A stretch of DNA of 64,000 nucleotides, from IMG/VR virus record IMGVR_UViG_3300045988_120991, positions 101,979-165,978 of that record; one strand, given 5' to 3'. This document shows, piece after piece, positions 11,098-29,529 of this stretch. This DNA is from a virus. The number at the start of each line of letters is the position of its first letter. The first letter of the stretch is position 1. A program made the position numbers and the translations under genes. The notes under the pieces are model-generated. The model was given only the letters and a program-made list of their open reading frames with translations. It did no database searches and had not been told where the DNA came from.

Positions 11098-11142
11098 ATT
11101 AATTTTGTACTGTAATTATAACAGATATTTTCTATTTGTCAA
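11098..11142 (-). promoter_or_regulatory. sigma-70-type promoter plus conserved leader
   Basis: Minus strand reads TTGACA-N16-TATAAT-t-ACAGTACAAAATTAA. The -35 overlaps the stop codon of the upstream gene. Confidence 0.65.
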
Positions 11143-12263
11143 GATGTTCTTAACCTTTCAATAAGTTTTTTTAGAATTTTAGCAATGTCAGAAATATCAT
11201 GCTGATTCAATGTTTCGTCCAATGTAATACGAATCGTGCTTAAAGCTTCTGCATCTGTAAGTCCAATAGCTTTTAACGTGCTACTTGGCACAGTCTCCCC
11301 ACTACTACAAGCAGAACCCGCAGAGATATAAATCCCACACATACTTGCTAGAGTCACAAGGTCACTAGCTTTTACTCCATCAATACGAACAGAAATATTA
11401 TTGCACAGACGATTAGTATCAAGTTCTGGACCATTTAGATGTACTCCAGGAATTTCAAGAATTTTCTTTGCAAGTTCATCCCTATTAAATCTAGTACAAA
11501 TGTTTGTATAGTCGTGTAACGTTCCTCTATTAATCTCTAGTGCTTTACCCATAGCTGCTATTGCAGGAGTATTTTCAGTTCCTCCTCGTTTGTGTAATTC
11601 TTGACTTCCATAAATAATCGGTGATAAATCAATTGTATCTTTGCAGTATAAAAATCCTGCACCTCTTCCACCTCTAAACTTCTGTGCTGAAATACTCATC
11701 ATATCTATTCTAAGCTTATCAACATCAATTCTTGATTCAGGGAAATATTGAACGGCATCCACATGTAATATACAATTATATTTATGCGTAATATATGAAA
11801 TAGATTTAATATCTTGGAGTGTTCCAATTTCAGAGTTTGCATACTGAATACTAACAATAGAATTATTATGTTCTTTTATTGTATCTTCTAAAATATTTGC
11901 ATCAATATTTCCAAATTCATCTACTGGAATATAATGTACATTAGTAAATTTATGATGATTTAAAATTTCACTAATAGATTTATGCTCTAATTGTGTCGTT
12001 ATAATAGTGTCAAAATTTGTTCCACAAAGTGCTAAAGTGTTTGCCTCTACTCCACCACTTGTGAAAATTATTTCTTTAGGTTCACAATTAATGTCTGCTG
12101 CAATTTGATCTCTTACATTTTCAATTATATTTTTAGCATCTTGCCCCATCTCATGAGTCGAAGATGGGTTGCCATAATGATTATACATTACATCGGCAAC
12201 CACATCTACAACTTCTTTGTATGGTTGAGTAGTAGATGCGCAATCTAAAAAGTATTTCTTCAT
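11139..12263 (-). CDS. cysteine desulfurase / class V aminotransferase (NifS/IscS-like)
   Basis: 374 aa. PLP-lysine context is SAQKFRGGRGAGFLY (compare SGHKxxGPKGxGxLY). C-terminal active-site loop is SAGSACSSG. Confidence 0.8.
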   Translation of the reverse strand: MKKYFLDCASTTQPYKEVVDVVADVMYNHYGNPSSTHEMGQDAKNIIENVRDQIAADINCEPKEIIFTSGGVEANTLALCGTNFDTIITTQLEHKSISEILNHHKFTNVHYIPVDEFGNIDANILEDTIKEHNNSIVSIQYANSEIGTLQDIKSISYITHKYNCILHVDAVQYFPESRIDVDKLRIDMMSISAQKFRGGRGAGFLYCKDTIDLSPIIYGSQELHKRGGTENTPAIAAMGKALEINRGTLHDYTNICTRFNRDELAKKILEIPGVHLNGPELDTNRLCNNISVRIDGVKASDLVTLASMCGIYISAGSACSSGETVPSSTLKAIGLTDAEALSTIRITLDETLNQHDISDIAKILKKLIERLRTS

Positions 12264-12799: not shown

Positions 12800-14038
12800 T
12801 TACATATAAATTGGATGTAGTTCGCATAGTTGACGAGCTATATCGGAGATATATTTCTTATTGCCATCGAAGTCTTTGATGGCCAACGAAATAAGTCCCG
12901 CCACATTTCTTGCGTCAAACTTATCAAAGCCACGTGTAGTAATTGCGGGAGTCCCAATACGAAGACCACTAGTTACAAATGTGGATAGAGGGTCGTTAGG
13001 AATTGAATTTTTATTCGTTGTAATGTTTACACTATCGAGCTTCTCCTGTAATTCTTTGCCAGTAATTCCTGTGTCTCTAAGGTCTAGAATCATTAGATGA
13101 TTATCTGTTCCACCAGAAATAAGCTTAATGCCGTTTGTTTTAAATACACTTGCCATAGCCTTTGCATTATTAATAACATTATTCTGATATTCTGCAAATT
13201 CTGTCTTCAGTGCTTCACCAAAACATACTGCCTTTGCTGCAATTATATGTTCTAGTGGACCGCCCTGAGTACCAGGAAATACTGCCGAATCAATCTTCTT
13301 TGCAAGTTTACTCTTGCACAAAATAACTGCACCACGAGGGCCTCTCATGGATTTATGAGTCGTAAATGTGCAAACATCAGCATAAGGGACAGGACTTGGA
13401 TGTACACCTCCTGCTACAAGTCCAGCAATATGCGCCATGTCTACAAAGAGATAAGCGCCTACTTCATCTGCAATTTCACGGAACTTTGCAAAATCAATGA
13501 TACGCGGATATGCAGAAGCTCCTGCCAAAATCATCTTAGGCTTGTTATTTAGTGCAAGGTCCCTCACATTATCATAGTCAATAAAGCCATTTTCGCCTAC
13601 TCCATAACGAACTACGTTAAAGTACTTGCCAGAAATGTTGAATGGTGCTCCGTGACTGAGATGCCCACCAGCAGAAAGATCCATGGACAGAACGGTATCA
13701 CCAGGGGATAATAGTGCATAAAATACTGCCAAATTTGCGCTTGCTCCTGAATGCGGCTGCACGTTTGCATGTTCTGCTCCAAATAGCTTTTTACAACGTT
13801 CAATTGCAAGAAGTTCTACTTCATCAATATACTGACATCCACCATAGTATCTCGCATGAGGCTTTCCTTCTGCGTATTTATTGGTTAGAACAGATGACAT
13901 TGCGTCAAGAACTGCTGGAGACACAATGTTTTCTGATGCAATAAGTTCGATTGTACCACGCTGCCTGTTAAGTTCTTTCAAACAAATATCGTATACTTCT
14001 ACATCTTGCTTTTTTAGGTTGTCTAGCATTATATTCAC
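12800..14038 (-). CDS. glyA: serine hydroxymethyltransferase
   Basis: 412 aa. Family-wide similarity is evident, including [11 protein letters not shown] (PLP lysine), [10 protein letters not shown] and [10 protein letters not shown]. Confidence 0.9.
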
Positions 14039-14045
14039 TCCTTAC

Positions 14046-14074
14046 TTAAAAATAGGGGAGACTTTCGTCTCCCC
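14046..14074 (-). terminator. rho-independent terminator closing the tRNA array
   Basis: Minus strand reads GGGGAGAC-GAAA-GTCTCCCC followed by TATTTTTAAG, which runs into the glyA RBS. Confidence 0.75.
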
Positions 14075-14077
14075 TTA

Positions 14078-14153
14078 TGGAGCACGTGACGAGGCTTGAA
14101 CTCGCAACAGCCAGATTGGAAATCTGGAACTCTACCAATTGAGCTACACGTGC
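14078..14153 (-). tRNA. tRNA-Gly(UCC)
   Basis: Hand-folded cloverleaf: GCACGTG/CACGTGC acceptor, loop TTTCCAA, T-loop TTCAAGC, CCA encoded. Confidence 0.85.
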
Positions 14154-14158
14154 ATTTG

Positions 14159-14235
14159 TGGTACACCTTGAAGGACTCAAACCTTCGACCTTCTGATCCG
14201 TAGTCAGACGTTCTATTCAACTGAACTAAAGGTGC
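14159..14235 (-). tRNA. tRNA-Arg(ACG)
   Basis: Cloverleaf with TCTGA-CTACGGA-TCAGA anticodon arm, T-loop TTTGAGT, CCA encoded. Confidence 0.85.
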
Positions 14236-14240
14236 ATATA

Positions 14241-14315
14241 TGGTGCCCGTGGAGAGATTCGAACTCTCGACTCACGGCTTAAAAGGCCGTTACTCTACCA
14301 CTGAGTTACACGAGC
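14241..14315 (-). tRNA. tRNA-Lys(UUU)
   Basis: ACGGC-CTTTTAA-GCCGT anticodon arm, GAGAG-TTCGAAT-CTCTC T arm, CCA encoded. Confidence 0.9.
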
Positions 14316-14318
14316 ATA

Positions 14319-14395
14319 TGGTCGGAGTGCAGGGGCTTGAACCCTGGGCCTCTAGATCCCAAATCTAGCGCTCTACCAAACTGAGCTACACCCCG
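14319..14395 (-). tRNA. tRNA-Pro(UGG)
   Basis: CTAGA-TTTGGGA-TCTAG anticodon arm, CAGGG-TTCAAGC-CCCTG T arm, CCA encoded. Confidence 0.9.
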
Positions 14396-14400
14396 AAATG

Positions 14401-14477
14401 TGGCACCCCGTGTTGGACTCAAACCAACGACACATGGCTTAGAAGGCCATTGCTCTGTTCAACTGAGCTAACGGGGC
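14401..14477 (-). tRNA. tRNA-Arg(UCU)
   Basis: ATGGC-CTTCTAA-GCCAT anticodon arm, GTTGG-TTTGAGT-CCAAC T arm, CCA encoded. Confidence 0.9.
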
Positions 14478-14482
14478 ATATA

Positions 14483-14577
14483 TGGCGCCGAGGGTGGGAT
14501 TCGAACCCACGGGCCGAATATAAATCGGCACACAAGATTTCAAGTCTAGGCGCTTATGACCACTTGCGCACCTCGGC
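14483..14577 (-). tRNA. tRNA-Ser(UGA), class II
   Basis: Loop CTTGAAA, long variable arm GCCGA...TCGGC, GTGGG-TTCGAAT-CCCAC T arm, CCA encoded. One mismatch in the anticodon stem. Confidence 0.8.
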
Positions 14578-14690
14578 ATATTAACTTTGTAATCCCAAAC
14601 TCCTCCACACAGATTACTGGGCACCCCTTACCTCGAATGCTAGTTAGTAGCAACAAACGTTTGTGCCGTTTCCACAAATAAAGATACACC

Positions 14691-14885
14691 TCACTGCGTA
14701 TTAACCTCTGTATATTCAGTACTAGATAAGGTAATCATTCTTTCGCATCCGTCCTGTGGACAAAAAATATTTGCAACCCCAAGATTATTTATTCCGTCAG
14801 ACGGATTAAATGCAAATTCACAACCACAATAAGGGCAGATTGCCTTATAGGTCTTAACTTTGCCTCCCTTGATAATATACTTCAT
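14691..14885 (-). CDS. small zinc-ribbon protein embedded in the tRNA array
   Basis: 64 aa with CPYCGC...CPQDGC. GAGGTG RBS. Confidence 0.5.
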   Translation of the reverse strand: MKYIIKGGKVKTYKAICPYCGCEFAFNPSDGINNLGVANIFCPQDGCERMITLSSTEYTEVNTQ

Positions 14886-14896
14886 AATAACACCTC

Positions 14897-15016
14897 TTAA
14901 TTAAACTTGTTCAACTGCCGCTTAACTTTACGGATAAGGCCCTCGTTCATAGTCTCGCCTCGTGCCAAAAGCTTTGCTAGACGATTTTCATAATGTTCCT
15001 TAGTGCGAAAGTTCAT
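14897..15016 (-). CDS. small basic helical protein (39 aa) embedded in the tRNA array
   Basis: Hand-translated MNFRTKEHYENRLAKLLARGETMNEGLIRKVKRQLNKFN. Strong AGGAGG upstream. Confidence 0.35.
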   Translation of the reverse strand: MNFRTKEHYENRLAKLLARGETMNEGLIRKVKRQLNKFN

Positions 15017-15042
15017 AATATGTACCTCCTAAAATTTTTGTA

Positions 15043-15165
15043 TGGCAGGGGTAGTAGGGTTCGAACCTACGATGCGGGAGTCTGGTCAAGGTAGTTGGTA
15101 CTGCCCCAACTAAATTCACTTGAATACCTTGAAAGTCCCGTGCCTTACCACTTGGCTATACCCCT
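15043..15165 (-). tRNA. tRNA-Gln-like gene interrupted by a 49-nt insertion in the anticodon loop (UUG if CTTT+GAC are joined; UUC is the alternative)
   Basis: AGGGGTA/TACCCCT acceptor, GCC-AAGTGGTAA-GGC D arm, CGGGA...TCCCG anticodon stem enclosing 56 nt, GTAGG-TTCGAAC-CCTAC T arm, G73, CCA. Insertion at 15083-15131. Confidence 0.65.
15094..15110 (-). repeat. conserved insertion hairpin, copy 1 (GTTGG-GGCAGTA-CCAAC)
   Basis: The same 5-bp stem and 7-nt GGCAGNA loop recur in the insertions at 16662-16678 and 17532-17548. Confidence 0.7.
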
Positions 15166-15168
15166 ATA

Positions 15169-15243
15169 TGGTGGATCTGACGTGACTCGAACACGCAACT
15201 TCTTCCTTGCAAGGGAAGCTTTCTCCCATTGAAATACAGACCC
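15169..15243 (-). tRNA. tRNA-Cys(GCA)
   Basis: CTTCC-CTTGCAA-GGAAG anticodon arm, GCGTG-TTCGAGT-CACGT T arm, CCA encoded. Confidence 0.85.
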
Positions 15244-15405
15244 AGATTTTATGAGATAGCTACACTATGTATACCTAATGTAGCTATTAGGTTTTCTAAC
15301 TCCTCACCTCAAACCATTTTTATCTGTCTCTCCTCTTAGCCAATCAGATTTGAGTGACTTGAACGGACCGCCGTCCTCACATTGATAAAATAGTAAAATC
15401 AACAA
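15244..15405 (-). other. 162-nt non-coding spacer with strong hairpin inside the tRNA array
   Basis: Minus strand contains ATAGCTACA-N14-TGTAGCTAT (9-bp stem) and GGTTT...AAACC. I found no tRNA fold and no ORF. Confidence 0.3.
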
Positions 15406-15496
15406 TGGCGCGATAGGAAGGCTTCGAACCTTCGCACGGCTTTCACCGCCTAGCAGATTAGCAATCTACCCTCTTCAACCACTTGAGTACTACCGC
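15406..15496 (-). tRNA. tRNA-Ser(GCU), class II
   Basis: GTAGA-TTGCTAA-TCTGC anticodon arm, long variable arm GGCGGTGAAAGCCGT, CCA encoded. Confidence 0.85.
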
Positions 15497-15499
15497 ATA

Positions 15500-15703
15500 T
15501 TAATCTAATGTTCTTCCAGTTGCTAATTCAAAAATTAAATTATCAACACAGGGAATGTGCATTGCCTCTATCTCATATTGAGTACGATGTTCAATGTCAT
15601 TAATATAGATAGGACAATCTTTACATTCTACATTTTCACAAAAACGAACAGCTTTTTCTACTATTTTAGAATTCGCAAATTTTATATATTCTTCCCAACG
15701 CAT
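15500..15703 (-). CDS. small Cys-containing protein embedded in the tRNA array
   Basis: Start moved to MRWEEYIKF, with GGAGG 5 nt upstream. 67 aa. Confidence 0.5.
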   Translation of the reverse strand: MRWEEYIKFANSKIVEKAVRFCENVECKDCPIYINDIEHRTQYEIEAMHIPCVDNLIFELATGRTLD

Positions 15704-15723
15704 AAAATCCTCCATAAAACGAG

Positions 15724-15752
15724 CAGTTTATACAGTGATACTCAGCACTATC
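15724..15752 (-). repeat. 29-nt direct repeat, copy A (contains hairpin ATAGTG-N8-CACTGT)
   Basis: 25 of 29 nt identical to 16117-16145. Both copies sit just downstream (minus sense) of a tRNA 3' end. Confidence 0.6.
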
Positions 15753-15775
15753 CCACGGTCCCAATCGAGCTTTTC

Positions 15776-15850
15776 TGGAGCTGATGGAGAATTTCGAAAT
15801 CTCGACCTAGTGATTACAAATCACTCGCTCTGCCTCTGAGCTACACCAGC
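15776..15850 (-). tRNA. tRNA-Thr(UGU)
   Basis: AGTGA-TTTGTAA-TCACT anticodon arm, CCA encoded. One T-stem mismatch. Confidence 0.8.
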
Positions 15851-15956
15851 AGATCTCCTCGTCTTTCCGAGGTGTCAATCGCACTTTTACATTAATAATC
15901 TTAAATTATTCTTTAATAGGAAGATGACGCCAATCTTGTGTGATTACCTTTTATGT

Positions 15957-16025
15957 GAGGTCTTAATTGGAATCGAACCAACACCTGCCCCACCACGGGG
16001 CCGATCTACCATTGAACTATAAGAC
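15957..16025 (-). tRNA. atypical tRNA-like gene with a shortened (15-nt) anticodon arm; identity undetermined
   Basis: GGTCTTA/TAAGACC acceptor and GTTGG-TTCGATT-CCAAT T arm. The anticodon region is GCCCC-GTGGT-GGGGC (5-nt loop, or 4-bp stem with loop CGTGGTG). No CCA encoded. Confidence 0.4.
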
Positions 16026-16027
16026 CT

Positions 16028-16105
16028 ATGGTGACGCTACCGGGGATCGAACCCGGACACTCCACGGTGAAAGCGTGGTAACTCTACCAATTCGTCCATA
16101 GCGCC
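16028..16105 (-). tRNA. tRNA-Glu(UUC)
   Basis: CCACG-CTTTCAC-CGTGG anticodon arm, CCGGG-TTCGATC-CCCGG T arm, CCA encoded. Confidence 0.8.
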
Positions 16106-16116
16106 ATATCTTTGGA

Positions 16117-16145
16117 CAGTTTATACAGTGATGTCCAGCACTGTC
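16117..16145 (-). repeat. 29-nt direct repeat, copy B (hairpin ACAGTG-N8-CACTGT)
   Basis: See 15724-15752. Confidence 0.6.
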
Positions 16146-16156
16146 ACTTTTGGGAG

Positions 16157-16241
16157 TGGTAGCGGTGGTGGGCTACGATCCCACACGTCATAAGACATTG
16201 GTTTTTGAGACCAACCTGTCTGCCTGTTCCAGCACACCGCC
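16157..16241 (-). tRNA. tRNA-Leu(CAA), class II, atypical T-loop
   Basis: TTGGT-CTCAAAA-ACCAA anticodon arm, long variable arm. The T arm is GTGGG-ATCGTAG-CCCAC, with A where T54 normally sits. CCA encoded. Confidence 0.75.
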
Positions 16242-16448
16242 ATATTAAGCACAACCTACATAGAGCTAGCCTCGCTCACACTTGCTTTCCCGAACACTTC
16301 CCACCCTCGGTTATGCTTTGTTATTGTTTATCCTATTTTCACAATAACATATGCCTCGTTCTCTTCTCGTTACTATGGGTTAGTAACTTAGTAGCTTTTC
16401 TCTTGTGGATAGCACTTATCAATACACCGAGAACCCCAATAGGCGGCA
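16242..16448 (-). ncRNA. 207-nt structured non-coding spacer (candidate ncRNA)
   Basis: No credible ORF. Minus strand contains CTCGGT...ACCGAG enclosing about 110 nt, GTTACTA-ACCCA-TAGTAAC and GTTATTGT-N13-ACAATAAC hairpins. Confidence 0.3.
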
Positions 16449-16524
16449 TGGTTGCGAAGTTCTGGAATCGAACCAGATTCTGATAGCTTATGAGACTACC
16501 TGAGATTCCTACCTCCCACTCGCA
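16449..16524 (-). tRNA. tRNA with CAU anticodon (Met, or Ile2 if lysidine-modified)
   Basis: GTAGT-CTCATAA-GCTAT anticodon arm, TCTGG-TTCGATT-CCAGA T arm, CCA encoded. The acceptor has one mismatch. Confidence 0.7.
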
Positions 16525-16608
16525 TTATCTAGCAGACTACAATGCCGTCTGCTAGGGCATTAGAAAGAGGTGATGCCTATAACCAAGGCTCTGAACTTGT
16601 CATTCAGA

Positions 16609-16758
16609 TGGTCCCCCACCGGTGGATTGAACACCGAACCTCCCGATTATTTGTCACTACAGTAAGTCCTGCCCTTACATTACTGATTATCCTTCAGTGG
16701 TGTTGCTTTTACACTATGTAGTGAAGTCGGGTGCTCTAGCCAGTTGAGCTAGCAGGGG
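16609..16758 (-). tRNA. class I tRNA interrupted by an approx. 73-nt insertion in the anticodon loop (Ile-UAU-like if CTT+ATAA are joined; Arg-UCU or UCA readings also possible)
   Basis: CCCCTGC/GTGGGGG acceptor, GCTC-AACTGGCTA-GAGC D arm, CCCGA...TCGGG stem enclosing 80 nt, AGGTT variable loop, CGGTG-TTCAATC-CACCG T arm, A73, CCA. Confidence 0.6.
16662..16678 (-). repeat. conserved insertion hairpin, copy 2 (GTAAG-GGCAGGA-CTTAC)
   Basis: Shares stem ends and the GGCAGNA loop with copies 1 and 3. Confidence 0.7.
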
Positions 16759-17056
16759 ACATATAATCCGGCTTTTACGGTACGCCCAATAAGATGGACA
16801 CGCTTGAATTTCACAATTGCCATCAAAGTGCCTGATGACTAACACCCAATATGAAGCCTTGATATCATTGCTTCTAAGTCGTTATTGGGAACAACAGATG
16901 GTAATGATAGCAAGCGAAGCCGCGCATGACTCCATTTCACAGTGCTTCATCAACTACTTTTGGCATTTCTAATTATTATCGGTGCAGGTAGCTAATCCTG
17001 TAACGGCTTATCCTCATTGATTATCTCCTATGAAATTTGCACTACTTACTATCATT
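16759..17056 (-). ncRNA. 298-nt non-coding spacer (candidate structured RNA)
   Basis: No ORF above about 22 codons and no tRNA fold found by eye. Several 5-6-bp hairpins (e.g. CATCA-N7-TGATG). Confidence 0.25.
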
Positions 17057-17141
17057 TGGTGGGCCAGGGTGGTGCCGACCCACCTACTCCCGAAGGAAAC
17101 GGATTTACAGTCCGCCGCAGTTGCCGATTTGCTACTGACCC
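17057..17141 (-). tRNA. tRNA-Tyr(GUA), class II, atypical T-loop
   Basis: GCGGA-CTGTAAA-TCCGT anticodon arm, variable arm TTCCTTCGGGAGTA. The T arm is GGTGG-GTCGGCA-CCACC (G54/G58). CCA encoded. Confidence 0.75.
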
Positions 17142-17468
17142 ATATAGCTATACTTTTTAACTTGGGCAAGAAGTATAGTGAAACTTGCCAGACGATCAAA
17201 CCTTCATCCACATGGGAGCCACACGCAGTTCGTCCGTAGTATGTGGTTTTAATGTTTGAGTTGGTTCGCTACACCAACTCCGACTGACTTGCAATCGCAC
17301 TATTTTCTCTACAATTGGCCTTTGCACTACATTCGCACCCTAGTGCATTAACCTTCCTATATAGTGAACTTCCCTTTCATTTTCTGCTTCGAGAACCAAT
17401 CGCTTGTTCTCTACTCCAAGACTTTGGACGGGAGATGGGGCGGTAGTTTAATGACTTGCCAAGGTCGA
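17142..17468 (-). ncRNA. 327-nt structured non-coding element closed by a terminal helix (candidate large ncRNA)
   Basis: Minus-strand 5' CTTGGCAAG can pair with 3' CTTGCCCAAG. Internal hairpins are GAGAAC-N9-GTTCTC, GCACTA-N11-TAGTGC and GAGTTGG-N9-CCAACTC. No ORF. Confidence 0.35.
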
Positions 17469-17601
17469 TGGTGCGGGTAGCGAGACTTGAACTCGCACGG
17501 ATATTTCACCGAGGGATTTTTGGTGAGTATTGTAGGTGCTGCCCCTACCAAAGCACTGGCTATACCCAAGTCCCTTGTGTCTGCCATTCCACCATACCCG
17601 C
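17469..17601 (-). tRNA. tRNA-Leu (class II) interrupted by a 47-nt insertion in the anticodon loop (UAA if CTT+AAAA are joined)
   Basis: GCGGGTA/TACCCGC acceptor, Leu-type D arm GTG-GAATGGCAGA-CAC, AGGGA...TCCCT stem enclosing 54 nt, long variable arm, GCGAG-TTCAAGT-CTCGC T arm, A73, CCA. Confidence 0.65.
17532..17548 (-). repeat. conserved insertion hairpin, copy 3 (GTAGG-GGCAGCA-CCTAC)
   Basis: Shares stem ends and the GGCAGNA loop with copies 1 and 2. Confidence 0.7.
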
Positions 17602-17649
17602 ATATCACAGGGCAGCTTTAAGGTGATGCCCAGCACCATACTTAACTCC

Positions 17650-19203
17650 TTAAGAGTTCTTCAATGCGGCTTCCACCGCATCATATCTATCACTCATAAG
17701 CGTCTCAACGAGGCACTCATAAGGATTGGTCTTACCACTCATAACCATCTTGCAGACATTAGTGGAGAATCCACTAACAAGAGCAACACCAAGGTCATTC
17801 TCCTTTATAGGAATAGTTCCAGTGCGAGAATTTACATTCCAGAAGACTAGTCTAGGCATCTGATACCCAGCATCCTCGAAACGCTTCTTGATTACCTTAA
17901 AAAGTTTTGCATTAGGTCTATTAAGACCATATCTAGCGGAACCGTCACAAGTTGCACAAGAGTCAAACTCCATATCTGAAATAATCAGTACGTTCTTAGG
18001 CATATCCTCTTGCTTCATATGACCATTCACCGCAGTAGTAAGAATCAAATCAAACACCTTTTCAATGTTTGTATTTGAACACTCGTCATGACCATATGCA
18101 ACACGTAACTTATCTCTCAGAGAATCGCACTGACTAAAATCAACCAACTGAGGTCTGCTAGAGAAAGTAATGTATTTATCCTTAAAGTCTCCAGAAGAAT
18201 GTTCTGCAAAGTAAATCGCAAGTGCATTTGCAACTTCAAGTGCAGTAACACGGCTACTTCCACCAACGTTGCAACACATAGAACCAGAGCCATCTGCAAC
18301 TACAATGGTGTTTCCACATTCATTTACTGTGTTAGGCAAAGCTTTCCAAAGAGATTCAAGAGTTGCATCGTATTTGCCGATACCGCCGTACCATCCAGTT
18401 GCACTAGAATACTTATGCACAATGTCGTGAGGGAACAAAGTTCCAGCATTAATCTTAGTTTCGCCCTTTTCAAGCTTACTCAGATACTCTCTGCGACGCT
18501 CCTCATCATTACGAAGGAAAGCTCCGTTATAAATGAGATTTGCACGAGAAGGAACTGTTTCGTACTTAATGTCTCCCCATTTCTTTGCAGACATCTTGCC
18601 CTCTACAATATCAATGTAAGAACGCAGAGAAGAAAGTGTCTTACGATACTCACGCTCAGTCATACCAAGATTCTTGCAAATGTATCTTGCATCCATCTTA
18701 GTTTTTGCAGAAGAAGCATTCACAGAAGGAAGCCACTTGGCAAGAAGAGATACGGGCTTATTATCAGCCATATTTGCAATATCATCAGTGAGCTGCTTTT
18801 TGATGATGTCAAAAATAATACCATCTACGTCTGTACCAAACAGACACCACAGGTCATCATAACGACCATACTCACTCACCAGAGGAGCAAGATGCTTAAC
18901 AATATCAACGTCATCCTTTGCCATATTCTTAATAATCGCTCTGAACAAACGTCTTTCACCAAGACCACCACGAACATCTCTGGCGAAGAACAGCCAACGT
19001 AGAGCCATCATTTTATCTTCAAAATAAGCCTTAGTAAACTTATTATAGATATTCTCCTCACTCATACCACGCATAGAAGAAACTGCAAAGTTTAGGTCAA
19101 CCAGTTCCTTACCAGAGGTACGATACCCAAGAGCGCCATTCTCAGTTACTGAATAGTTGAAATCCTCGTTCAGAGTATTCTTTACTGCATTCATAAAAGA
19201 CAT
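17650..19203 (-). CDS. Ro60/TROVE-like vWA protein (DUF2828-type architecture)
   Basis: Start moved to MSFMNAVKN, with GGAGG upstream. N-terminal VTENGALGYRTSGKELVDLNF. C-terminal vWA domain with MIDAS VADGSGSM, and a tail FWNVNSRTGTIPI...VSGFS that parallels the Ro60 C-terminus. Confidence 0.65.
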   Translation of the reverse strand: MSFMNAVKNTLNEDFNYSVTENGALGYRTSGKELVDLNFAVSSMRGMSEENIYNKFTKAYFEDKMMALRWLFFARDVRGGLGERRLFRAIIKNMAKDDVDIVKHLAPLVSEYGRYDDLWCLFGTDVDGIIFDIIKKQLTDDIANMADNKPVSLLAKWLPSVNASSAKTKMDARYICKNLGMTEREYRKTLSSLRSYIDIVEGKMSAKKWGDIKYETVPSRANLIYNGAFLRNDEERRREYLSKLEKGETKINAGTLFPHDIVHKYSSATGWYGGIGKYDATLESLWKALPNTVNECGNTIVVADGSGSMCCNVGGSSRVTALEVANALAIYFAEHSSGDFKDKYITFSSRPQLVDFSQCDSLRDKLRVAYGHDECSNTNIEKVFDLILTTAVNGHMKQEDMPKNVLIISDMEFDSCATCDGSARYGLNRPNAKLFKVIKKRFEDAGYQMPRLVFWNVNSRTGTIPIKENDLGVALVSGFSTNVCKMVMSGKTNPYECLVETLMSDRYDAVEAALKNS

Positions 19204-19239
19204 TTTCTTTCCTCCATTTTTTTGATTTATTTCTAAATC

Positions 19240-19442
19240 CCAAGACACATTATTATGTACAATCTCCACATTAAAAATTTGCTGTTAGTGTCTTTGGAGT
19301 TTATTCAACGAGACGCCAAAATAAAACCATTAGTAAAAATATCATTTTCATCTTTTTAAATTGCTGTAAGCGTCTCTATGTAAGGCAAGGCACCATCAAT
19401 ATAAATCCATATCATATTATGTAAAGTTGCTGTTAGTGCCTT
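19240..19442 (-). repeat. three tandem imperfect hairpin units, each carrying a CTAACAGCAA-N-TTT box, in the leader of the Ro-like gene
   Basis: Minus-strand stems are AAGGCAC/GTGCCTT, GAGACGC/GCGTCTC and CCAAAGACAC/GTGTCTTGG. Each is followed on its 5' arm by (C)T(A/T)ACAGCAA-N-TTT. A fourth box lies inside the tRNA-Asn insertion. Confidence 0.6.
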
Positions 19443-19448
19443 TTTAAA

Positions 19449-19567
19449 GTCTCCTGACAGGACTTGAACCTGCGACCTCTGGTTTAACAGACCAATTAGA
19501 AACTTGCTGTTTAAGGCTTTTACAAGTCTCGTTATTAAGCGCTCTATCCGACTGAGCTACAGGAGAC
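19449..19567 (-). tRNA. tRNA-Asn(GUU)-like gene with a 44-nt insertion at the top of the anticodon stem; encoded G-1 opposite C73; no CCA
   Basis: Removing 19495-19538 gives TCTCCTG-TA-GCTC-AGTCGGATA-GAGC-G-CTGGT-CTGTTAA-ACCAG-AGGTC-GCAGG-TTCAAGT-CCTGT-CAGGAGA-C, a canonical cloverleaf. Confidence 0.6.
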
Positions 19568-19604
19568 ATATTTATGAGCAGTTTAACGAGGTGCTCGGCT
19601 CACT

Positions 19605-19649
19605 TTAATTTTGTACTGTGATTATACCACAGATTACTTATTTTGTCAA
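19605..19649 (-). promoter_or_regulatory. sigma-70-type promoter plus conserved leader, driving the tRNA-Asn-like / Ro-like unit
   Basis: Minus strand reads TTGACA-N17-TATAAT-c-ACAGTACAAAATTAA, with a TGTGG extended -10 context. Confidence 0.7.
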
Positions 19650-19763
19650 GTACTTTTTTACTTTTTATTCCAGAGAAGCCATCCACAAGCAACTCCGAAC
19701 AAGAAACATACAATTTCCTTCATCTTTACTTCTTCCTTATTATACCATATTCGGCATCATTTG

Positions 19764-20114
19764 TCAAGCATTTTCTCGATTTTTTCTTGTGCAATTTACT
19801 CGATTGCAGAACTCAAACATTGCTGCATTAAGATCCTCTGCAAACTCATCACACTTGGTATCCAGTGCTGCATAGTACCGATCCAGAAGCTTCGCCTTTG
19901 CCATCTTCATACCAATAGCAGGATCATACTCATCATCAGGATGACACACGACAACCGCACGATAAGAACTACTCATCAGGTACTTACTAGGATCGAAGCA
20001 CAGAGATTTGGTCTGTCCCATAATCTTTGCAATCTTATGGATAGCATCATACTTCGTGTTCTCAAGAACCGCAATGGTCTTGTTCTGCTCCGGCACATGT
20101 ACAAACTTAATCAT
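19764..20114 (-). CDS. hypothetical protein
   Basis: ORF track, 116 aa, behind two tandem consensus promoters. Confidence 0.6.
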   Translation of the reverse strand: MIKFVHVPEQNKTIAVLENTKYDAIHKIAKIMGQTKSLCFDPSKYLMSSSYRAVVVCHPDDEYDPAIGMKMAKAKLLDRYYAALDTKCDEFAEDLNAAMFEFCNRVNCTRKNRENA

Positions 20115-20134
20115 TTTTGTTATCCTTTCTTGTT

Positions 20135-20179
20135 TTAATTTTGTATTGTGATTATAACATGCTTTCTTGAACTTGTCAA
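20135..20179 (-). promoter_or_regulatory. sigma-70-type promoter plus conserved leader
   Basis: Minus strand reads TTGACA-N17-TATAAT-c-ACAATACAAAATTAA. Confidence 0.65.
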
Positions 20180-20228
20180 GCCCTTTTTAACCATCCCGGT
20201 AAAGGTTCTTGCCTCATTCATTGTTTGT

Positions 20229-20257
20229 ATTATAGCGCATTAATTTTGTTTTGTCAA
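20229..20257 (-). promoter_or_regulatory. second, upstream sigma-70-type promoter
   Basis: Minus strand reads TTGACA-N17-TATAAT. The -35 overlaps the stop codon of the preceding gene. Confidence 0.55.
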
Positions 20258-21402
20258 GTATCTTTTTTAAATAATTTTCTAGTTTCTTCATAAGACAGGT
20301 ACTTAATATTAATGCCCGTCAAATTCAGCAGTTTTTCATTTTTAAACTCGTTAACATGAGTTACTGCAAGAGATACCTCATAGGCAATATCCCCAATGTC
20401 TTCCTTAATTCTTTGCATAAGCTCACCAACATCAAGATGCCCATACCGAATGGACCCCTGATACTGGTTTGTAATATTGGTCTTGTCATCAATGTTAATG
20501 TTAATCTCCGACTTATCACATTCACATTCAAAGTCACCAGCACCATGCTTCGTCATATATGTTCTAGTAACATAGCACACTTCAACGTTTGCATTAGGTA
20601 AATACTTTTCAATGATTATATGAGGATTTGCAATGCCAGTATTGCTAGGAGTCGTATTATCATAATACTGAACATGACGCTGATCCAACAGCAATCCTTG
20701 CCCATTTTCAAATACGACATTATCAAACTTTTGCAAAATCCTACTATAATCAAATACTACATGAGAATGCATAAACTGCGCATCGTCAATAAAGTTATAA
20801 ATCAAATTGTCGGATGCCAAAATATCTTCCCATTCCTGCAAAACTTCAGGACTAGCCTTTAGCAGCCTCTTAGACGTATATTCATCCCTGACACGCTTAA
20901 GAAATGCGACCTGCTCGTCCTTAGTCATATTATAGAACTGCTGGAAAGACGGGCTTGTAGTATTCCTATATCTAAGAACAGTTTCCCAAATACCCATACC
21001 ACAAGAGCCATACCGATTTTTGCCACGACTATCCTCAAGGATTTGATTTGTAATCATATCATATGGAGTAGACCATCTGCAATTCCAATGACTATAAACA
21101 CGAGGTGCATAGCCTAATGCCTTCAATTCCTCGTACTCTTTTCTAAAAGTCATAGGGTTTAGAATATACTCTTCCCCAAAATAAGTATCTGCTCCCGCAA
21201 AGGTTCCTGAACCAAAATGGTGGAACACATGTCTAATGCCATCTGGAGTAACTACAGTATGTCCTCTTTGTGCGCCGCCATTGCATAGAGCAACGATACA
21301 AGATTCATTCCGCTTACTTGCTTCGGCACAAAAGTAATCGGTCATCAGACCTTTTCCCTCGTCGCCAAAGTTGCTACCAATTACTACCTTAACATTAGAC
21401 AT
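20254..21402 (-). CDS. adenylosuccinate synthetase family protein (short form; PurA/PurZ-like)
   Basis: Start moved to MSNVKVVIGSNFGDEGKGLMTDYF (AdSS P-loop GDEGKG). Also NGGAQRGHTV (compare GGHNAGHT), FENGQGLLLD and TRTYMTKHGAGDF (compare TRVGxGPF). Confidence 0.7.
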   Translation of the reverse strand: MSNVKVVIGSNFGDEGKGLMTDYFCAEASKRNESCIVALCNGGAQRGHTVVTPDGIRHVFHHFGSGTFAGADTYFGEEYILNPMTFRKEYEELKALGYAPRVYSHWNCRWSTPYDMITNQILEDSRGKNRYGSCGMGIWETVLRYRNTTSPSFQQFYNMTKDEQVAFLKRVRDEYTSKRLLKASPEVLQEWEDILASDNLIYNFIDDAQFMHSHVVFDYSRILQKFDNVVFENGQGLLLDQRHVQYYDNTTPSNTGIANPHIIIEKYLPNANVEVCYVTRTYMTKHGAGDFECECDKSEININIDDKTNITNQYQGSIRYGHLDVGELMQRIKEDIGDIAYEVSLAVTHVNEFKNEKLLNLTGINIKYLSYEETRKLFKKDT

Positions 21403-21416
21403 GTGTTTATCCTTTC

Positions 21417-22271
21417 TTACCAAGAAATACCTTCACTAGATGTTGCTACATTGCCACCAGAAAACGCATTGGTGACAATATCAATGATGTCATCTGCAAT
21501 CTTATCAATAGACGTATCCTTCAGATGGTTCTCGTCCAGAAGCAGCCCAAAAGTCCTATGAACGGCCTCATGATAACGACCATAACCATGCTTAACATAC
21601 AGATGATAAATGTCAAACTTCTCAGACGCATTAGCGTAAAGCTGTGCCGTTTCAACATCGCTCTGTAGATTATCACCAGTTACTGCGGATAGAGCCTTCT
21701 TCGGCAGATATGGATTCATAGGCTCGTCACCCATAGTGATAATGACACCCTTCTGTCCACGATTCCAGCAATCTAGCTTCGTGTGATTAAGACCGAAATA
21801 CCATGCGGCGCTATAAGACTCATAATCATTGCCTCCACCACCGCCCTCAAAATAAATCTTATCAAGCTGTTCTGCGATGCGGATATCAGACTCAAACTGT
21901 GATGCCTGAATAGGAGCGCAATCGTAAGCAAGATCCCCAATGCCCATAACCATGAACTCTACGTCTGCGATATTCTCGTATAGCTTAGTCATTACTACAT
22001 TGATCTGCTTTGCAACTTCCATAGCCGCCTTGCCCATGCTACCAGTTACATCGAGTGCCAGAATAACAGGCTTGGTATTAGGATGTTCCACAGAGTCAAC
22101 ACACTCACGCATTACATTCTTAGGATTAAGGTCTGCTACTAGCATTTTAGATTTAAAATTGTCCTGCACATTAGAGGACATTCCAGTGACTACACCATCC
22201 ATTGATACGCTGTACCCCTTGGTAGTCGCATAAGTGGTAAAAGCATTTTTAGTCCAACTGCCACCGCCCAT
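21417..22271 (-). CDS. von Willebrand factor A (vWA) domain protein
   Basis: 284 aa. MIDAS-like ILALDVTGSMG, followed by MVMGIGD and IITMGDE motifs. Confidence 0.7.
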   Translation of the reverse strand: MGGGSWTKNAFTTYATTKGYSVSMDGVVTGMSSNVQDNFKSKMLVADLNPKNVMRECVDSVEHPNTKPVILALDVTGSMGKAAMEVAKQINVVMTKLYENIADVEFMVMGIGDLAYDCAPIQASQFESDIRIAEQLDKIYFEGGGGGNDYESYSAAWYFGLNHTKLDCWNRGQKGVIITMGDEPMNPYLPKKALSAVTGDNLQSDVETAQLYANASEKFDIYHLYVKHGYGRYHEAVHRTFGLLLDENHLKDTSIDKIADDIIDIVTNAFSGGNVATSSEGISW

Positions 22272-28239: not shown

Positions 28240-29529
28240 TTATTCTGTTTTCCACCTAAATACAAACCCTTTTGTTTTTTCTTGTACACCATGACAGCAT
28301 TCTAAAATTCTTGTTTTACTTGCATTCGTATTTTTTACGGCATCCGCAACATTTTTATATTCTGCTATAAAATTTCCATCTAAATCATACTGTAATACTG
28401 GAAGTCTAACTGGGCTTTTATGATAATTTGTAGATTTAATTTTATCTAAATCATAATCTCCGTCGGCATATTTCCATACAAATCCACCAGCCATAGAGCC
28501 ATCTTTAGCTAAACATCTCGATATGGTAGAATTGTTAATTCCAGTTATCCTTGATGCCTCAACAATACTTTCATAAGTTGCAATAATATTTCCATTTGTG
28601 TCTATTTGCACAACTTCTTTATATACTGGATTTTTATATACATATGTTTTTGACGGGTCATATTCTTCTTTGTATATCCAGATATATTCGCCAGCGTGGT
28701 TATAATTGCCTTTGCAGCACATAGTTATACTTGAATCATAAATATTTGTGTTTATACTTGCGTCTTTTATAGTACTATATTCTGCTATAAAATTACCCAA
28801 TTTATCCAATTGTACAACCGGCCTTAATGTATTATTATCATATGTTATATCATTATGAGGATCATAATCTTTTTTATAAACCCAAAGAAACTTTCCGCCA
28901 GATTTAGAATGTAATTTACCAAGGCAGCACTTGTTAATAGTTGTTTCATCAACACCAGTTATTTCACTGGCTTCTCTACCACTTTTAAATTCTGCTATAT
29001 ATTTTCCATCTAAGCCTAATTGAATAACTGGTACACTTTGTATTTTGCTTATAACATTTTTTGTTTCATCCGAATGATGTTTACCATAAAATGGGTTACA
29101 TTCTCCAGAAAATTTCTTGCTCCACTTTTCTTTTAACTCGTCTGTCCATCTATTTCTTTGAGCTTCACTCATTTTGTTTTTAGTATCATCAGATACTATT
29201 AATCCACTTACTCCGCCTCCACCATAACAAAGATTGTACCAATTTTTATCTTCTACAACATTAAGAAAAACACTTAAATCATATTCAGATTTATTTAATT
29301 CTTCTAATGAATCACAAAAACATATAATATTTCTAGAAAAATTTTCTTTGCCATATTTTCTTACTGCACTTTTAAATGCACTACCGCTTCCTAAATAATT
29401 CTTCCATTTATAATTATCATCAAAAGATTTTTGTCCAAGGTATCTTTTGCCGTTAACCATATTTGTAGTAATATATATAAATCCATATGGTTCTTTAATT
29501 ATTTTTTTTACTTCTTCCACAACTCTCAA
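28240..29529 (-). CDS. GIY-YIG homing endonuclease with four tandem NUMOD/IENR-like DNA-binding repeats
   Basis: N-terminal GFIYITTNMVNGKRYLGQ (GIY...YxG). Repeated units of the form xVxQxDxxGNxIAxYxSxxEAxxxTG....I..C......GGFxWxY. Non-ATG (TTG/GTG) start. Confidence 0.8.
   Translation of the reverse strand: MRVVEEVKKIIKEPYGFIYITTNMVNGKRYLGQKSFDDNYKWKNYLGSGSAFKSAVRKYGKENFSRNIICFCDSLEELNKSEYDLSVFLNVVEDKNWYNLCYGGGGVSGLIVSDDTKNKMSEAQRNRWTDELKEKWSKKFSGECNPFYGKHHSDETKNVISKIQSVPVIQLGLDGKYIAEFKSGREASEITGVDETTINKCCLGKLHSKSGGKFLWVYKKDYDPHNDITYDNNTLRPVVQLDKLGNFIAEYSTIKDASINTNIYDSSITMCCKGNYNHAGEYIWIYKEEYDPSKTYVYKNPVYKEVVQIDTNGNIIATYESIVEASRITGINNSTISRCLAKDGSMAGGFVWKYADGDYDLDKIKSTNYHKSPVRLPVLQYDLDGNFIAEYKNVADAVKNTNASKTRILECCHGVQEKTKGFVFRWKTE

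Follow-up and report, generated by a model that had tools for sequence, protein, structure and literature searches.

ROOL (RF03087) and GOLLD (RF01998) are ornate RNAs of phages and prophages, often found near tRNA genes, each forming a single unit of about 500-800 nucleotides (nt). The tRNA gene cluster of phage T4 reportedly encodes stable small RNAs ("species 1 and 2"), non-tRNA structured RNAs that are co-transcribed with the phage tRNAs and presumably freed by tRNA-processing enzymes. For MALAT1/MEN-beta, RNase P cleavage at mascRNA, a tRNA-like structure, generates the 3' end of the RNA lying upstream, and UPSK/UPD are stacked pseudoknots located immediately 5' of the tRNA-like structures of plant viruses. 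The theta ribozymes are small pseudoknotted RNAs related to those of hepatitis delta virus (HDV); they abut tRNA genes in gut Caudoviricetes, are linked to tRNA maturation, trimming gut-phage tRNAs on their 3' side, and are present in phages that carry suppressor tRNAs (PMC10879173). Here, we describe an element (positions 17142-17468, minus strand) from a 64,000-nt stretch of phage DNA (hereafter referred to as the window; IMG/VR record IMGVR_UViG_3300045988_120991, positions 101,979 to 165,978). The element occupies exactly the gap between two tRNA genes (ARAGORN, Rfam), and its 3' part is a double-pseudoknot domain, M2, constituting a new RNA family with no Rfam family membership.

The element and M2 share the defining features of none of the systems compared. 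The element resembles ROOL and GOLLD in its location, but it is a 327-nt fusion of a module of about 190 nt with another of about 105 nt, rather than a single unit. Unlike species 1 and 2 of T4, for which the comparison is by description only, M2 has a double-pseudoknot fold and a fixed site directly 5' of a tRNA. This site also distinguishes it from the theta ribozyme, the cleavage site of which, at its own 5' end, abuts the 3' end of a tRNA. M2 would share with MALAT1/MEN-beta a 3' end held in a higher-order structure with an A-rich tract, but the eukaryotic RNAs use a triple-helix ENE, whereas M2 forms an H-type double pseudoknot. UPSK/UPD likewise place stacked pseudoknots upstream of a tRNA-shaped RNA, but they lie in the 3' untranslated regions of eukaryotic RNA viruses, their sequence is unrelated to that of M2 and the Rfam UPSK model gave no match.

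Instances of M2 were found with a covariance model (R1), which identified 22 copies, 18 of them distinct in sequence, with scores of 67-101 bits. The copy at 17142-17250, the only one in the window, scored 89.9 bits (E 6e-22) and has all the helices; nothing else credible was detected with R1 in about 1 Mb of related phage DNA. Sixty-five related loci (loci are designated by L numbers) were fetched from IMG/VR via a Ro60-like protein encoded close to the element. Further members were sought in IMG/VR with DNA patterns. A tight pattern was effective: this specific pattern returned 11 metagenome contigs, all true members, one of which was labelled human gut. A looser first pattern gave mostly chance matches among the matches listed, and a relaxed 3' pattern added chance matches only. 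Candidate L199, which lacks P1 and P3, was rejected. The M2 pattern was absent from 185,579 bacterial and archaeal species genomes, and M2 was absent from 50,697 GenBank phages (megablast, blastn); the domain is known so far only from metagenome phage contigs.

The strand order of M2 is P1(loop PK1)-P2-J-PK1'-P3(loop PK2)-linker-PK2', which gives three hairpins and two pseudoknots (PK1 and PK2), with the following features in the window:

17142-17250, minus strand: M2, 3' double-pseudoknot domain, conserved core, 109 nt (about 105 nt)
17219-17246, minus strand: P1 hairpin, 8 base pairs (bp), loop UAC-GGACG-AACU; 8/8 pairs changed on both sides, 92% of cells paired
17231-17235, minus strand: PK1 5' strand GGACG, in the P1 loop, pairing with 17190-17194
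17207-17217, minus strand: P2, short hairpin UCC...GGA, 92.6% paired
17195-17206, minus strand: junction UGAAGG(UU)UGAU, (nearly) invariant in 18/18 distinct sequences
17190-17194, minus strand: PK1 3' strand CGUCU, directly after UGAU and abutting P3
17165-17189, minus strand: P3 hairpin GGCAAG/CUUGCC, 6 bp, loop beginning GUU; 100% paired, 5/6 pairs compensated
17171-17178, minus strand: PK2 5' strand CUAUACUU, 3' part of the P3 loop, pairing with 17148-17155
17155-17163, minus strand: A-rich linker AAGUUAAAA between P3 and PK2, AAG(U/C)UAAAA in all instances
17148-17155, minus strand: PK2 3' strand AAGUAUAG
17142-17147, minus strand: short tail CUAUAU reaching position -1 of tRNA-Tyr, presumed RNase P site

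In the R1-fitted alignment, 96.2% of the cells of P1, P2, P3 and PK1 are paired, and 19 of the 22 pairs have changed on both sides. The covariation score was 0.862, a value reached by none of 500 shuffles (0.244 +/- 0.024), and controls with a slid partner gave 0.21 at most. PK1, which was absent from the model that built the alignment, is paired in 100% of cells, and all five of its pairs are compensated (variants GGACG/CGUCU, GGACA/UGUCC, GGAUA/UAUCC, GUCCA/UGGAC and GCUGA/UCAGC). Counted from a fixed anchor, PK2 has an unbroken run of 5-9 pairs in each of the 18 distinct sequences, versus a mean of 1.7 bp for mismatched loop-tail combinations, and 14 versions of its helix sequence occur. 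The helices are joined by about 35 near-invariant junction nucleotides (UAC..AAACU, GGAUGAAGG..UGAU, GUU and AAGUUAAAA, the last of these AAGYUAAAA). In the family, the P1 loop reads UAC-[5 nt]-AAACU, and the junction with the preceding GGA reads GGAUGAAGG..UGAU, the family form being GGAUGAAGG(UU)UGAU. The P2 site is the place of a variable hairpin insert in relatives, with stems of its own in L224, L216, L103 and L232. We infer that PK1, P3 and PK2 stack as one continuous rod, because P3 is directly adjoined by the 3' strand of PK1 and, at its own 3' strand, by PK2.

M2 is one of three parts of the element, each of which is also found apart. The single ornate RNA envisaged in the preliminary description of this interval is, instead, a fusion of modules, which are arranged in the window as follows:

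17142-17468, minus strand: whole element, composite of M0, M1 and M2, between two tRNA genes
17442-17466, minus strand: M0, 5' module GACCTTGGCAAGTCATTAAACTACC, 25 nt
17258-17441, minus strand: M1, central domain with five hairpins, about 190 nt
17415-17428, minus strand: M1 hairpin H1
17391-17411, minus strand: M1 hairpin H2 (GAGAAC/GTTCTC)
17298-17366, minus strand: M1 compound hairpin H3, inner hairpin at 17324-17346
17281-17297, minus strand: M1 hairpin H4
17258-17280, minus strand: M1 hairpin P0/H5 (GAGTTGG/CCAACTC)

Compensatory change was observed in 19 of the 43 predicted pairs of M1 in an alignment of eight sequences (A8). The two hairpins singled out in the preliminary description, GAGTTGG-N9-CCAACTC (17258-17280) and GAGAAC-N9-GTTCTC (17391-17411), are present, and compensatory changes preserve their pairing. 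We consider it almost certain that M1 and M2 are genuine structured RNAs. The structure is specific to the minus strand, because it contains numerous G-U pairs, which would turn into A-C mismatches in the complementary strand, and the element is a strand-specific modular non-coding RNA in a tRNA operon. Full-length copies are present in L054/L029 (92% identity), L004 (78%) and the metagenome contigs L229, L231, L234 and L236, and partial copies in L008 and L011. M1 is on its own, with neither M0 nor M2, in L244 and L245; in L008, it is accompanied by M0 but not by M2. M2 occurs without M1 in L011, L210 and L211, and without either M0 or M1 in L026, L059, L103, L201, L216, L224 and metagenome contigs. 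The same 22-25 nt of M0 stand behind the 3' CCA of different tRNAs, or in a non-tRNA context (14 distinct contexts), and are followed by M1, by a small hairpin and M2, directly by a tRNA, or by other sequence. The M0 alignment carries no covariation information, and the role proposed for this module below is conjectural. The closest relatives lack the element: the two tRNAs are separated by 57 nt in L001 and L012 and by 36 nt in L006, the latter corresponding to a clean deletion between CCTT and CTTGTCTAAG, and all three retain the tRNAs and a remnant of the tail. The element is therefore an accessory presence/absence cassette, dispensable and variable among near-identical phages.

The terminal helix previously thought to close the element is refuted. 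The CTTGCC of its 3' arm pairs with the GGCAAG located 13 nt upstream, forming P3. In L011, L211 and L239, the change of this arm from CTTGCC to CCTGTC is matched by a local change from GGCAAG to GGCAGG, whereas the 5' arm CTTGGCAAG is unchanged and the 5' module remains CUUGGCAAG. The terminal arms seem complementary because each is itself a near-palindrome (CTTG..CAAG).

Other claims of the preliminary description stood. The interval is non-coding, as the open reading frames (ORFs) called mechanically wholly inside it reach no more than 43 aa and 1-nt indels in relatives break the frames; a coding reading was rejected on this basis. It contains no tRNA fold, and no match to any Rfam 15 covariance model, ribozyme families included, was obtained for the element at E<=10 (cmscan). 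ROOL and GOLLD were absent from the whole window at the gathering score and from 13500-20500 at E<=10, and no match was found for tmRNA (ARAGORN search and Rfam), HEARO, group I/II introns or RNase P RNA. Given this lack of matches at E<=10, all these identities are excluded, within the limits of covariance models. The only Rfam matches in the window and four distant loci were tRNAs and one YrlA-like RNA outside the element. Thus, of the two identities proposed for the element, a new class is supported and membership of ROOL or GOLLD is not. The lack of an Rfam match and the lack of conserved structure had both been named as outcomes that would count against a structured RNA in this phage tRNA cluster; the first was indeed found, but comparison with homologous phage loci revealed strong covariation. 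The evidence from the single sequence is not, on its own, above chance, with a minimum free energy of -84.9 kcal/mol for the minus strand versus -79.3 +/- 5.2 for shuffles (z = -1.09), and a z of -0.84 for the plus strand. Three further readings were rejected. The hexamers of a promoter (TTGCCC-17-TATATG, or a weak match at 17199-17172) are not conserved among other members. A Shine-Dalgarno-like reading of AAGGUGAU fails in that a UU insertion splits this sequence in window-type copies and no start codon follows. A riboswitch, an aptamer with an expression platform in the 5' untranslated region of a regulated ORF, does not fit a domain followed mostly by a tRNA gene, with no ORF downstream.

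M2 is found in tRNA operons in every case. For 13 of the 18 distinct sequences, corresponding to 12 of the 16 loci tabulated, the last nucleotide of M2 is position -1 of a tRNA, and the tRNAs concerned are of six identities (Tyr, Asp, Gln, Leu, Cys and Thr). The tail between PK2 and tRNA position +1 measures 5-8 nt, usually with a U at the end. In the group formed by L103, L232 and L233, the spacer from tRNA-Met to tRNA-Thr consists of M2 and about 45 nt, and nothing more. No RNA-related neighbour common to the distant M2 loci was found, and the only constant partner of M2 is the tRNA.

In this part of the window, every gene is encoded on the minus strand. A tRNA array extends over 14078-17601, with one separate tRNA at 19448-19567, making a total of 18 tRNA genes once insertions are allowed (ARAGORN and Rfam). 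The features framing the element are:

17057-17141, minus strand: tRNA-Tyr(GTA), CCA encoded, directly downstream of the element
17469-17601, minus strand: type-II Leu-like tRNA, anticodon loop interrupted by a 47-nt insertion, directly upstream of the element
17650-19269 (start probably 19209), minus strand: gene for a Ro60/TROVE-like RNA-binding protein, same operon as the element
19767-19739 and 19649-19621, minus strand: two sigma-70-type promoters, TTGACA-17-TATAAT, perfect consensus, both with TG
14075-14054, minus strand: strong intrinsic terminator, directly downstream of the final tRNA in the array

The tRNA at 17469-17601 is labelled Pro-UGG by ARAGORN; the insertion-free version of this gene in L002 and L005 is Leu-UAA. 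Between the promoters and the terminator lies one unit, consisting of a tRNA, a gene for a 519-539-aa protein and the tRNA array including the element, and the element is predicted to be part of one minus-strand transcript, from the promoters at about 19.7 kb to the terminator at 14.06 kb. The protein has the Pfam domains DUF2828 and DUF7788 and belongs to PHROG 850 ("RNA-binding protein"). The top 10 PDB matches obtained with Foldseek for its AlphaFold model (pLDDT 73) were all TROVE/Ro60/Rsr proteins, matched over the full length and including the Ro60 of a Thermus phage, and at least 8000 homologues are present in metagenomes. One M2 locus, L059, has a Ro60-like gene together with a full-length match, below threshold (L059:8807-8929, plus strand; 43.3 bits, E 3e-8), to the Y RNA-like YrlA (RF02553), located between M2 and a tRNA-Met, which suggests a phage Ro60/Y-RNA system in L059. 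No YrlA match was found in the window.

We tentatively favour, with slightly less than even confidence, the interpretation that the element is cut out of the tRNA precursor and serves as a stable accessory RNA. Cleavage by RNase P at position +1 of the adjacent tRNA would set the 3' end of this RNA, 5-8 nt past PK2. Its 5' end would arise by processing past the upstream tRNA; the conserved M0 is a possible site for this step and may be the point of endonucleolytic entry freeing the upstream CCA-encoding tRNA. The compact knot and the short tail could confer resistance to 3' exonucleases on the released RNA, which would then bind a conserved protein or small-ligand partner; for the present phage, the operon's own Ro60-like protein is a candidate. 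The excision of this RNA by tRNA-processing enzymes, its stability and any action in trans are putative properties.

Several points weigh against this interpretation. The existence of a discrete, stable RNA is itself something we infer. Unless M0 is the site of an endonucleolytic cut, a spacer resistant to exonucleases would be an obstacle to the 3' trimming of the CCA-encoding tRNA that precedes it. In five of the 18 distinct sequences (four of the 16 loci: L011/L211, L059, L230 and L235), no recognisable tRNA directly follows M2: in L059, the YrlA-like match and then the tRNA-Met follow, and in L011, L230 and L235, M2 is followed by sequence without assignment. A dedicated partnership between M2 and Ro60 is weakly supported, because a Ro60-like gene is lacking within 5-7 kb of M2 at the distant loci L103, L201, L224 and L230, and M2 is lacking from about 55 of the 65 loci fetched via the Ro60-like protein.

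Structured RNAs in which two pseudoknots covary and dozens of junction nucleotides are invariant have often proved to be ribozymes, aptamers or the cores of ribonucleoproteins. It is possible, if rather unlikely, that M2 is a new class of functional RNA that can be carried in front of different tRNAs, either as a ribozyme-like leader, self-cleaving or RNase P-directing, that processes phage tRNA precursors, or as a high-affinity aptamer. The target of such an aptamer would be a conserved factor of the host or phage, which could be RNase P, a Ro60-like protein, a small molecule or an exonuclease. M2 might, alternatively, act only in cis, as a 5' leader that tunes the access of RNase P or the order of processing, or that shields the precursor; it would then control the amount of mature downstream tRNA rather than being a free-standing functional RNA. 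The sole constant context of M2, a tRNA starting 5-8 nt past PK2, is consistent with such a leader, as is the usual U at position -1, the base preferred there by RNase P, and plant viruses provide a parallel in the upstream pseudoknot domain stacked on their tRNA-like structure. We nevertheless consider this explanation rather improbable: tRNA-Tyr is retained without M2 in L001, L012 and L006, the identity of the downstream tRNA varies, M2 precedes non-tRNA sequence in L011, L059, L230 and L235, and the approximately 35 invariant junction nucleotides exceed the needs of a simple steric element.

A more specific possibility, that M2 is a new class of small self-cleaving ribozyme cutting the tRNA precursor, appears unlikely. 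The double-pseudoknot core with many invariant unpaired nucleotides would suit a ribozyme, and the pairing of a hairpin loop with the 3' tail over an A-rich linker recalls the P1/pseudoknot arrangement of pistol (RF02679). In pistol, the loop of P1 forms a pseudoknot with the P2/P3 junction, after which come P3 and a G-U cleavage site. The resemblance to pistol is confined to this hairpin-loop/A-rich-linker/pseudoknot part, as M2 has neither the P2 nor the P3 of pistol and no match to its model. The phage and tRNA setting and the presence/absence polymorphism are also like those of theta, twister and pistol ribozymes (PMC10879173). However, no Rfam ribozyme family matches at E<=10, and the strand order differs from those of HDV-like, twister and pistol ribozymes, the topologies of which did not fit M2 on comparison by hand; the HDV-like topology is nested (P1-P2-P3-P1.1-P4), with a catalytic C in J4/2, and M2 has no HDV-family match. 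Self-cleavage exactly at the tRNA junction is also unlikely because the linker between PK2 and tRNA +1 varies in both length (5-8 nt) and sequence, unlike a fixed cleavage site. Self-cleavage at some other position is conceivable.

It is more doubtful still that the element is an analogue of Y RNA dedicated to the Ro60-like protein of its operon. The Ro60-like gene precedes the element by 180 nt and shares its strand and operon, as in bacterial rsr/yrlA, in which YrlA is likewise encoded just downstream of the Ro60-like gene (rsr), and a YrlA-like RNA adjoins M2 in L059. But 17142-17468 has no match to the YrlA model and no tRNA-like domain, the pairing of the 5' and 3' ends that would have formed a closing stem like that of Y RNA is refuted, most loci with a Ro60-like gene lack the element and distant M2 loci have no Ro60-like gene nearby. 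Finally, the notion that the interval has no RNA function is highly improbable. It would then be a spacer arising by chance or degeneration, what is left of a decayed tRNA or intron, a DNA-level repeat or a promoter. The modest folding z for the single sequence (only -1.1), the lack of the element in the closest relatives and the weak promoter-like match at 17199-17172 would suit this notion, but it is effectively refuted by the covariation of M1, PK1 and PK2, in which two modules independently show massive compensatory change that extends to pseudoknots left out of the alignment model, and by the conservation of junction nucleotides across phages with Ro60-like proteins only 50-60% identical, the strand specificity conferred by G-U pairs and the lack of conservation of the promoter-like hexamers in other members.

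Whether as the excised accessory RNA that we favour or in another capacity, M2 is, at about 105 nt, easily synthesised and provides a concrete object for studying the processing of tRNA precursors in large phages. The "spacers" of tRNA arrays emerge as a reservoir of modular non-coding RNAs, comprising M0, M1, M2 and the YrlA-like RNA, and the operon containing M2 also carries a Ro60-like gene and insertion-bearing tRNAs, with suppressor-type tRNAs in related phages. No description of M2 was found in the literature searched; a catalogue of 10,006 candidate viral RNAs (PMC10690425) may list it as uncharacterised.

Several other features of the operon were recorded. The long array spacers at 14578-15042, 15497-15775, 16242-16448 and 16759-17056 (207-465 nt) contain no M2, and small ORFs are present in two of them, at 14691-14885 (64 aa) and 15500-15715 (71 aa). 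A 29-nt direct repeat (15724-15752 and 16117-16145, copies 86% identical) is located in each case just 3' of a minus-strand tRNA (Thr and Leu), and may be a shared 3'-trailer element. Five copies of a box, (A/T)ACAGCAA(N)TTT, are present at 19275-19530 (minus strand), in the stretch separating the second promoter from the start of the Ro60-like gene, and one of them falls within a tRNA insertion; the box looks like a repeated binding site for a protein or a processing signal. Right after the first consensus promoter, there is an ORF for a hydrophobic peptide of 21 aa (MKEIVCFLFGVACGWLLWNKK; 19658-19723, minus strand) with a Shine-Dalgarno-like sequence.

Insertions of 20-100 nt are frequent in the tRNAs of these phages, with 98 distinct insertions among 570 tRNA calls in the window and L001-L065. 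Four tRNAs of the window, all on the minus strand, carry one (15043-15165, 16609-16758, 17469-17601 and 19448-19567). The classes of insertion include a hairpin followed by (A/T)ACAGCAA and a T-rich stretch, a hairpin with the loop GGGCAGNA, three of which are present in the window, and the hairpin GAGGTCATCACTC. The anticodon stem-loop of the tRNA at 19448-19567 (CUGUUAA, GUU) is canonical and intact, so the insertion in this tRNA falls after the D arm and before the anticodon stem. There was no evident mechanism by which the tRNA insertions would be spliced out. The arrays of the close relatives L003-L006 contain suppressor-type anticodons (tta, cta and tca), in some cases in tRNAs with insertions, which hints at stop-codon recoding in this group of phages.

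The phage itself has no close relative among the 50,697 GenBank phages (megablast, blastn). The nearest cultured relatives of its DNA polymerase, at about 39% identity, are 140-170 kb phages of Bacillus and Geobacillus; a Firmicute (Bacillota) host is plausible on this basis, in keeping with the Firmicute-phage setting proposed in the preliminary description. A homologue of adenylosuccinate synthetase (20254-21423, minus strand) is assigned to PHROG 1211 ("2-aminooxy adenylosuccinate synthetase") and is PurZ-like, and genes for serine hydroxymethyltransferase (SHMT, 12800-14038) and a class-V aminotransferase (11139-12263) are found near it; the phage genome may contain 2-aminoadenine (Z). Further along the window, a homing-endonuclease/HNH-like ORF (28240-29529, minus strand) adjoins the genes for a RecJ-like exonuclease and the DNA polymerase.

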